A stretch of 64,000 bases of DNA from Escherichia coli (GCF_044647545.1 NZ_CP172818.1), one strand, 5' to 3'. Positions 18,284 through 18,425 are shown, counted from the stretch's first letter. Notes: generated from the sequence alone by a model not told the origin. Translations and numbers: made by a program.

Positions 18284-18425
18284 TGTAGGCCTGATAAGAC
18301 GCGGCAGGCGTCGCATCAGGCATTAGTGCGCAGTTGCCGGATGCGGCATAAACGCCTTATCCGGCCCACAGGAACAGTAATCTTTGTAGACCGGCTAAGA
18401 TGCGTCATCACATCCGGCAAACACA
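18284..18425. repeat. Cluster of REP palindromic units (BIME-like)
   Basis: Three GC-rich imperfect palindromes of the gccggatgcggc...gccttatccggcc type between torD and cbpM. Confidence 0.7.

Follow-up and report, generated by a model that had tools for sequence, protein, structure and literature searches.

The 151-bp gap between torD and cbpM occupies positions 18277-18427 of the window, the whole 64-kb stretch of Escherichia coli chromosomal DNA analysed, and separates the convergent torCAD and cbpAM operons. It begins after the torD stop codon (TAA, 18274-18276) and ends at that of cbpM, which is encoded on the minus strand (TGA, 18430-18428). A 1.1-kb stretch around the gap is 100% identical in several complete genomes (for example, FDAARGOS_497), in which the genes are annotated as torD, cbpM and cbpA. 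From the torD stop, the gap holds 8 nt, a first REP unit (REP1), 12 nt, a second (REP2), 16 nt, a third (REP3) and 8 nt up to the cbpM stop:

18285..18322, plus strand: REP1, Z2-type, GTAGGCCTGATAAGACGCGGCAGGCGTCGCATCAGGCA, 8 nt past the torD stop
18323..18334, no strand: tail-to-tail linker of 12 nt between REP1 and REP2, TTAGTGCGCAGT, which aligns to the linker of Rfam naRNA4 (Y-l-Z2)
18335..18369, minus strand: REP2, inverted Y-type, TGCCGGATGCGGCATAAACGCCTTATCCGGCCCAC on the plus strand, with CCAC instead of CTAC
18370..18385, no strand: head-to-head linker of 16 nt between REP2 and REP3, AGGAACAGTAATCTTT, which resembles the linkers of longer alleles
18386..18419, plus strand: REP3, degenerate Y-like, GTAGACCGGCTAAGATGCGTCATCACATCCGGCA, the inverted partner of REP2, ending 8 nt before the cbpM stop

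The E. coli unit types Y, Z1 and Z2 are named as in Ton-Hoang 2012 (PMC3333891). REP1 had 95% identity to the Z2 consensus, with zero mismatches in either half-site in a half-site scan, and its RNA hairpin was predicted at -21.9 kcal/mol (z -5.9). REP2 had 94% identity to the Y consensus and matched the published REP consensus by nhmmer (E 8.6e-5). Identity of REP3 was 71-76% to whichever REP consensus was used, and its lone hairpin was weak (z -0.9 to -1.6); in the 151-nt RNA, REP2 and REP3, as inverted Y-type copies, were predicted to pair into one long hairpin. Folding of the whole gap gave -58.2 kcal/mol (z -3.8) for the plus strand, which is that of torCAD, and -75.4 kcal/mol (z -7.7) for the minus (cbpAM) strand. 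No T-run follows any stem on either strand of the gap, and the interval 18000-18700 returned 0 terminator-like sites and no promoter-like site. By prediction, the element is not an intrinsic terminator.

The Rfam model of naRNA4 (RF02564) matched REP1, the linker and REP2 together (18288-18366, minus strand) with 81.9 bits, the gathering score being 59.5. In 5,425 of 5,426 complete E. coli genomes, sequences similar to this 87-nt Z2 plus Y unit occupy at least 37-40 places each. REP3 with its linker is locus-specific (median 1 place per genome; at least 80% covered in 2,354 genomes), and the linker itself, AGGAACAGTAATCTTT, agrees at 12 of 16 positions, counted by hand, with GGGAACAGTGCTTTTT, the head-to-head linker of strains MS1657 and SCU-116. 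An earlier note on this DNA had placed a REP/BIME cluster between torD and cbpM, and consensus comparison, the covariance search described below, Rfam and copy number all agree with that placement. Read from its sequence, the element is one complete BIME-2 unit (Z2, 12-nt linker, inverted Y) followed by a degenerate third REP. Strictly speaking it would be an atypical or decayed BIME-2, because both here and in K-12 it has one full unit only, and its third position is held by a Y-like degenerate REP and not by a Z2.

REP units across the window

We built an independent reference set by scanning the pattern CTTATCAGGCCTAC-N15-45-GTAGGCCGGATAAGG through a collection of species-representative genomes. 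The scan yielded 120 loci (~1.03 Mb) from Escherichia albertii, Citrobacter and Pseudocitrobacter, and these were the source of 139 distinct REP units, none of them from the window, on which a covariance model (R1) was built. R1 was searched against the full 64 kb with filters off; the window was also searched with the half-site scan and with nhmmer, using the published consensus and the type consensuses. The commonest forms among the 139 harvested units (TGCCTGATGCGCTACGCTTATCAGGCCTAC for Z1, TGCCGGATGCGGCGTAAACGCCTTATCCGGCCTAC for Y and TGCCTGATGCGACGCTGACGCGTCTTATCAGGCCTAC for Z2) are consistent with the published REP consensus, GCCGGATGCGGCGTGAACGCCTTATCCGGCCTACGA (PMC12306157). Paired cells in the R1 alignment came to 96%, compared with 29-42% when the partners were slid, and the pair that discriminates Y from Z co-varied, being G-C in 77 and U-A in 53.

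R1 found five REPs in the 64 kb (E 5e-14 to 5e-4):

18335-18369, minus strand: Y REP (REP2), 50.5 bits, E 5e-14
18285-18322, plus strand: Z2 REP (REP1), 50.4 bits, E 5.4e-14
18386-18419, plus strand: degenerate Y-like REP (REP3), 26.8 bits, E 2.6e-6
40049-40083, plus strand: degenerate Y REP between efeB and phoH, 23.9 bits, E 2.3e-5
5237-5273, plus strand: diverged Z2-like REP between appX and appA, 19.8 bits, E 5e-4

All five fall within the three sites that the earlier note had flagged as REP-type palindromes (18284-18425, 5241-5272 and 39990-40085). The three sites are real, lie essentially where the note put them and hold every REP that R1 finds in the window; the neighbouring genes are indeed torD/cbpM, appX and efeB, as judged by annotation in identical genomes and by ORFs. 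All five REPs sit in intergenic spacers, and the nearest unit lies 8 nt from the stop codon of torD, 8 nt from that of cbpM, 5 nt from that of appX and 12 nt from that of efeB. The sole other R1 matches with E < 0.1 were at 700-724 (plus strand, 17.0 bits) and 17948-17967 (plus strand, 14.7 bits), which keep just the outer stem and CTAC. Since both lie within coding sequence (ORF 464-1051 and torD, respectively), we set them aside as probably due to chance.

The units differ in how much of the family signature they retain. REP1, REP3 and the Y unit downstream of efeB have GTAG; REP2 carries its CCAC for CTAC, the appX unit reads GTAA, and a small hairpin next to efeB, described below, has neither. 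REP1, REP2 and both efeB elements, the Y unit and the hairpin, show the two-base stem mismatch (GATGCG opposite CTTATC), which REP3 keeps in part. Of the five units, REP3 and the two at appX and efeB are degenerate (71-86% identity, 20-27 bits). By nhmmer, the published consensus matched REP2 and the efeB Y unit.

The REP consensus scan proposed in the earlier note, with a lack of any consensus match as the outcome against it, aligned the units to the Y and Z models. RNA folding, its other proposed check, gave a divided result: REP1, REP2 and the appX unit fold well, at about -18 to -22 kcal/mol (z -3.1 to -5.9), whereas REP3 and the efeB Y unit are weak as lone folds (z -0.35 to -2.2). We are confident that the flagged palindromes belong to the enterobacterial family of REP repeats, or palindromic units. 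The REP/BIME elements at these loci are already-known, ordinary members of that family. REP/BIME elements have been known since 1984. The RefSeq K-12 record has no REP features annotated in this region, hence no curated REP names, and we found no mention of the REPs at torD-cbpM, appX and efeB in the papers and supplements searched, including those of RepRanger and gyrase Topo-seq.

A diverged unit between appX and appA

The second site follows appX, a 30-aa ORF (5139-5231) with its stop codon TAA at 5229-5231, and comprises one element:

5237..5273, plus strand: single diverged Z2-like REP within the appCBXA operon, starting 5 nt past the appX stop

This unit had 81% identity to Z2 (nhmmer against Z2, E 0.015), and its R1 alignment covers just the outer stem and CTAC region. 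It scored 17-24 bits against the half-model of Rfam naRNA4, below threshold. GTAA stands in place of GTAG and one stem mismatch is left (CACATC opposite GATGCG), giving a nearly perfect stem, predicted as an RNA hairpin of -22.2 kcal/mol (z -5.5). The K-12 copy retains GTAG and reached 25.3 bits with R1. Binding by TnpA-REP needs both GTAG and the stem mismatch (PMC3333891), and as the window copy has lost GTAG and most of the mismatch, it is probably immobile.

A REP and a REP-like hairpin between efeB and phoH

The third site lies downstream of efeB (ORF 38709-39980, stop codon TGA at 39978-39980):

39993..40021, plus strand: Z1-like small hairpin, TGCCCGATGCGCAGGTTTATCGGGCATGA, 12 nt past the efeB stop
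40022..40048, no strand: AT-rich head-to-head linker, placed where a BIME-1 would have its L motif, but shorter than L and with no recognisable homology to it
40049..40083, plus strand: degenerate Y-type REP, GTAGGTCGGGTAAGGCGTTCGCGCAGCATCCGGCA, R1 23.9 bits

The Y unit had 86% identity to Y and matched the published consensus by nhmmer (E 5.6e-4). Its RNA-level effect may be nil, because three of its stem pairs are broken and it barely folds (z -2.2 and -0.35). The hairpin folds better (-15.6 kcal/mol, z -3.1) and has 73% identity to Z1, but at 39994-40017 it scored 9.8 bits with R1 (E 0.93), which is not significant as a REP, and it is without CTAC. The earlier note had placed further REP units after appX and efeB; the diverged appX REP and the efeB Y REP stand, and 39994-40017 is merely REP-like. 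On its sequence features the hairpin is REP-like and not demonstrably a REP. At 39991-40020, followed by AGTTTTG, it was called terminator-like, weakly, and it may be the terminator of efeUOB.

The hairpin and linker occur in 245 of 5,426 genomes (median 1 place per genome), which makes this a rare allele. Separately, around a thousand E. coli genomes have 30-nt matches to 39987-40017, at 90-93% identity, in other loci that carry no annotation, and the hairpin weakly resembles the 3' hairpin of the Rfam C0465 RNA (21.3 bits, below threshold).

Taken over the three sites, the earlier account can be refined by unit type: Z2, Y and degenerate Y-like units, with the appX site reading as a single diverged REP inside an operon.

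REP number at torD-cbpM varies among strains

We compared the torD-cbpM gap among E. coli strains and found alleles that differ in their REP content:

92 bp (AR_0069): REP1 and a chimeric REP2/REP3 hairpin
151 bp (this window and K-12): Z2, Y and the degenerate third REP
254 bp (MS1657): Z2-Y-Z2-Y-Z2 (5 REPs)
355 bp (SCU-116): seven alternating REPs

Expressed as tandem copies of the unit, these are 1.5 in the window and 2.5 and 3.5 in other strains. A rough estimate of allele frequency came from 45 records taken at even steps along a ranking of 5,431 records: 20 had the 151/153-bp form, 15 the 92-bp, 4 the 254-bp and 5 the 355-bp form, and one did not have the locus. Two of the sampled records matched the gap only in part; an IS insertion in the BIME was considered for them and rejected, both being the 355-bp allele. 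Relative to the K-12 form, the 92-bp allele lacks 59 bp between GATGCG direct repeats, one in the tail arm of REP2 and one in REP3. What remains is a chimeric hairpin with a perfect stem, TGCCGGATGCGTCATCACATCCGGCA, and the Y unit is destroyed in about one-third of the sampled records. This is the outcome expected of slippage over a long palindrome; we describe the change as a deletion, although its polarity could run either way.

Units have thus been gained, lost and replaced between strains, and the spacing from the torD and cbpM stop codons to the nearest REP stays at 6-8 nt in all five alleles compared. In K-12, REP1 (L002:1407-1444) is degenerate (GTGCGCCTGAAAAG...) and scores 24.0 bits, against 50.4 bits for the canonical copy here, which suggests that units at one locus decay or renew independently. 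In practical terms, the gap length (92, 151, 254 or 355 bp) could serve for strain typing.

Differences between the window and K-12

The window is collinear with 1,040-1,090 kb of K-12 MG1655 at ~97% identity, with few breaks. One break is at efeB-phoH, where the element of the window gives way in K-12 to another, BIME-2-like one, and the two cannot be aligned. Another is at 6582-6840, where 259 bp stand in place of a ~9-kb segment with etk-etp-gfcEDCBA (group 4 capsule) and IS1D; the K-12 counterpart is NC_000913.3 1041889-1050961, between appA and cspH. At its appA-side edge, this etk-gfc-IS1 segment of K-12 bears a REP (37.9 bits). At ~24160-24205, the K-12 gap between ymdF and rutG (extract L003:28285-28460) carries a textbook BIME-1 that is absent here, composed of Z1, a 35-nt L linker (CAGAAGATTGCAATATATTGAATTTGCACTGTTTT) and Y. 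On either side of this BIME-1, K-12 has a near-copy of a terminator-like hairpin, CACCGCCGGTAACCCCGGCGGTTTT; the window has just one such hairpin, and the doubling looks as if the target had been duplicated when BIME-1 inserted. The fourth break, at 36516-36585, corresponds to ~370 extra bp in the K-12 putP-efeU gap (extract L003:40815-41252). Among these extra bases are a palindrome very rich in GC and, at L003:41112-41146, a degenerate REP of 24.4 bits.

Presence or absence of REP/BIME elements accompanies most of the structural differences between the window and K-12, and intergenic REP repeats explain the alignment breaks in this region. The REP-associated breaks fit published strain-to-strain variation, in which the number of BIMEs at a given locus varies between strains (PMC3333891). 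The earlier note had also called such palindromes sites of rearrangement, and this has direct support: the torD-cbpM alleles differ by whole REP pairs or by a deletion within the palindromes, and the BIME at efeB-phoH has been replaced in K-12. Beyond the correct annotation of these loci, the finding matters little.

Elsewhere in the window, Rfam matches above threshold were a cspA-type thermoregulator 5' UTR (7184-7606, plus strand), an antisense-type Ysr251 (41178-41371, minus strand) within the plus-strand ORF 40453-41376, and the ES056 sRNA and one tRNA (55309-55400 and 49624-49708, both minus strand).

Alternative explanations

The Rfam match could be taken to mean that torD-cbpM is a dedicated small-RNA gene for a nucleoid-associated RNA of the naRNA4 type, which condenses DNA with HU. 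The score is well above the gathering threshold, and a transcript reading through from cbpAM would carry the Y-l-Z2 two-hairpin layout on which HU-mediated condensation depends, according to Qian et al. (PMC4550694). However, the repeats that define naRNA4 are the Y-l-Z2 copies of REP325, in the yjdM-yjdN interval (PMC4550694), which is a different locus, and the Rfam model is effectively a model of the BIME-2 unit, with similar units at dozens of places in each genome. The locus offers no promoter-like site, REP2 in the full 151-nt RNA is predicted to favour pairing with REP3 over forming its own hairpin, and the Y unit is destroyed in the 92-bp allele. We consider a naRNA4 gene here highly improbable; the above-threshold match reflects a generic paralogous BIME-2 unit. 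Just as improbable is that the hairpins are ordinary Rho-independent terminators, possibly bidirectional, that resemble REPs by accident. Their position directly after gene ends and between convergent operons would suit terminators, as would the weak call at the efeB hairpin, but the torD-cbpM stems have no T-run on either strand, the appX unit is internal to an operon, with appA following it, and a specific repeat-family match with E down to 5e-14 goes far beyond what a generic GC-rich stem would give. That the palindromes are chance GC-rich inverted repeats, or that short ORFs lying over them are the real features (18316-18444, minus strand, 42 aa; 18326-18508, plus strand, 60 aa; both span the region), can be regarded as refuted. 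The E-values of R1 and Rfam and the multi-copy distribution exclude chance, and the alleles differ in steps of 59 and ~101 bp, neither divisible by 3, which leaves no reading frame intact.

At efeB-phoH, the arrangement might instead be a true BIME-1 (Z1 - L - Y; RIP/RIB) that recruits IHF. The layout is head to head with a long AT-rich linker, and an HMM of 63 BIME-1 instances matched 39986-40084 from end to end, at 45.2 bits and E 2.7e-13, and the match takes in the conserved left flank, GCAAA..TGCC. A site with one mismatch to the IHF consensus starts at 40037. Most of the HMM score, however, comes from the Y unit: the flank, Z1 and L without it reached 10.3 bits (E 0.02), and the L motif, searched by itself as an HMM, had no match at 40018-40048. 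The linker measures 27-31 nt, compared with the 35-nt L in 56 reference cases (consensus AAGGTTTCTGCAATATATTGAATTTGCACGATTTT), the IHF-like site is on the strand opposite to that in L and has an estimated chance expectation of ~0.07 or more in the region, and R1 gives the Z1-like hairpin no significance as a REP. A true BIME-1 is therefore possible but unlikely, and we did not file the element as a canonical one, its L motif being undetectable and its sole IHF-like site having one mismatch and lying on the other strand. We read efeB-phoH as a degenerate Y REP facing a Z1-like hairpin over an AT-rich linker, a BIME-1-like layout in which no L is recognisable.

Possible functions

Members of the REP family have been linked to the stability of upstream mRNA and to binding of IHF, Pol I and gyrase (PMC3184786). 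The elements described here would be non-autonomous, with the REP-associated Y1 transposase spreading and reshuffling the repeats (PMC3333891), and palindrome-to-palindrome recombination or replication slippage may reshuffle the units as well. Transcribed as 3' ends, the REPs would fold into stable stem-loops that block 3'-to-5' exonucleases. Such stem-loops could also hold back read-through from either of the convergent operons, torCAD and cbpAM, into the other, while not being classical intrinsic terminators. The 3' stabiliser or terminator role that the earlier note had proposed is, in this sense, plausible.

Two further effects can be envisaged. Gyrase cleavage is enriched in BIME-2, mainly in y units (PMC6379681), and the Y unit of the torD-cbpM BIME-2 is a likely site of gyrase binding and cleavage, at a place where convergent transcription would accumulate positive supercoils. 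A REP lowers translation if no more than 15 nt separate it from a stop codon (Liang 2015, as summarized in PMC12306157). Since all four gene-proximal distances in the window (8, 8, 5 and 12 nt) satisfy this 15-nt rule, the gene-adjacent units, 5-12 nt past the stops, may stall terminating ribosomes and so lower the amount of upstream protein.

Any local role would have to be loose, given the wide range of REP copy number tolerated across strains. That healthy strains carry anything from two to seven REPs at torD-cbpM speaks against fine tuning of a local role and in favour of tolerated, semi-selfish DNA. A contrasting idea, which we regard as quite unlikely, is that this number is a heritable dial and not neutral junk. 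It draws on the REPs always starting 6-8 nt past both stop codons. If it were true, alleles would differ in ribosome stalling, in mRNA 3' protection and in convergent read-through, with strain-specific TorD and CbpM output and differing local supercoiling as the result.

Relation to known systems

E. coli REPs, or palindromic units, are reportedly the subject of work by Stern in 1984 and by Gilson and Bachellier. The units of the window resemble this family in being imperfect palindromes of 30-38 nt with a GTAG/CTAC foot, a GC-versus-TT stem mismatch and a G-C or T-A pair that separates Y from Z, and in lying outside genes, just 3' of stop codons. They depart from it in the degeneracy of REP3, the efeB Y unit and the appX unit, the last of which combines GTAA with a near-perfect stem; the efeB hairpin, without CTAC and not significant as a REP, departs further.

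BIMEs, including BIME-2, are defined together with the cleavage and recombination activities of TnpA-REP in PMC3333891. The torD-cbpM element shares with BIME-2 the order of Z2, a 12-nt linker and an inverted Y, then a 16-nt head-to-head linker, and also the variation in REP copy number among strains (5 in MS1657, 7 in SCU-116). It differs in having one full unit in the window and in K-12, and a third REP that is Y-like and not Z2. The BIME-2 family is a gyrase target (PMC6379681), and torD-cbpM would be a candidate by family membership. To naRNA4/REP325 (Rfam RF02564; Qian 2015, PMC4550694) it is similar in its Y-l-Z2 two-hairpin unit, which scores above the gathering threshold, and dissimilar in its place (torD-cbpM, not yjdM-yjdN) and in having one unit where REP325 has six.

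The efeB-phoH element parallels BIME-1/RIP/RIB (Z1, L with an IHF site, and Y) in its Z1-like hairpin and Y set head to head, its AT-rich linker and its left flank, and is unlike it in the lack of a recognisable 35-nt L consensus. Finally, although REP3 is degenerate and E. coli elements are classically called BIMEs, the pair of REP2 and REP3 recalls the REPINs, inverted REP doublets mobilised by RAYT/TnpA-REP, in being an inverted Y-type pair that is predicted to form one long hairpin.
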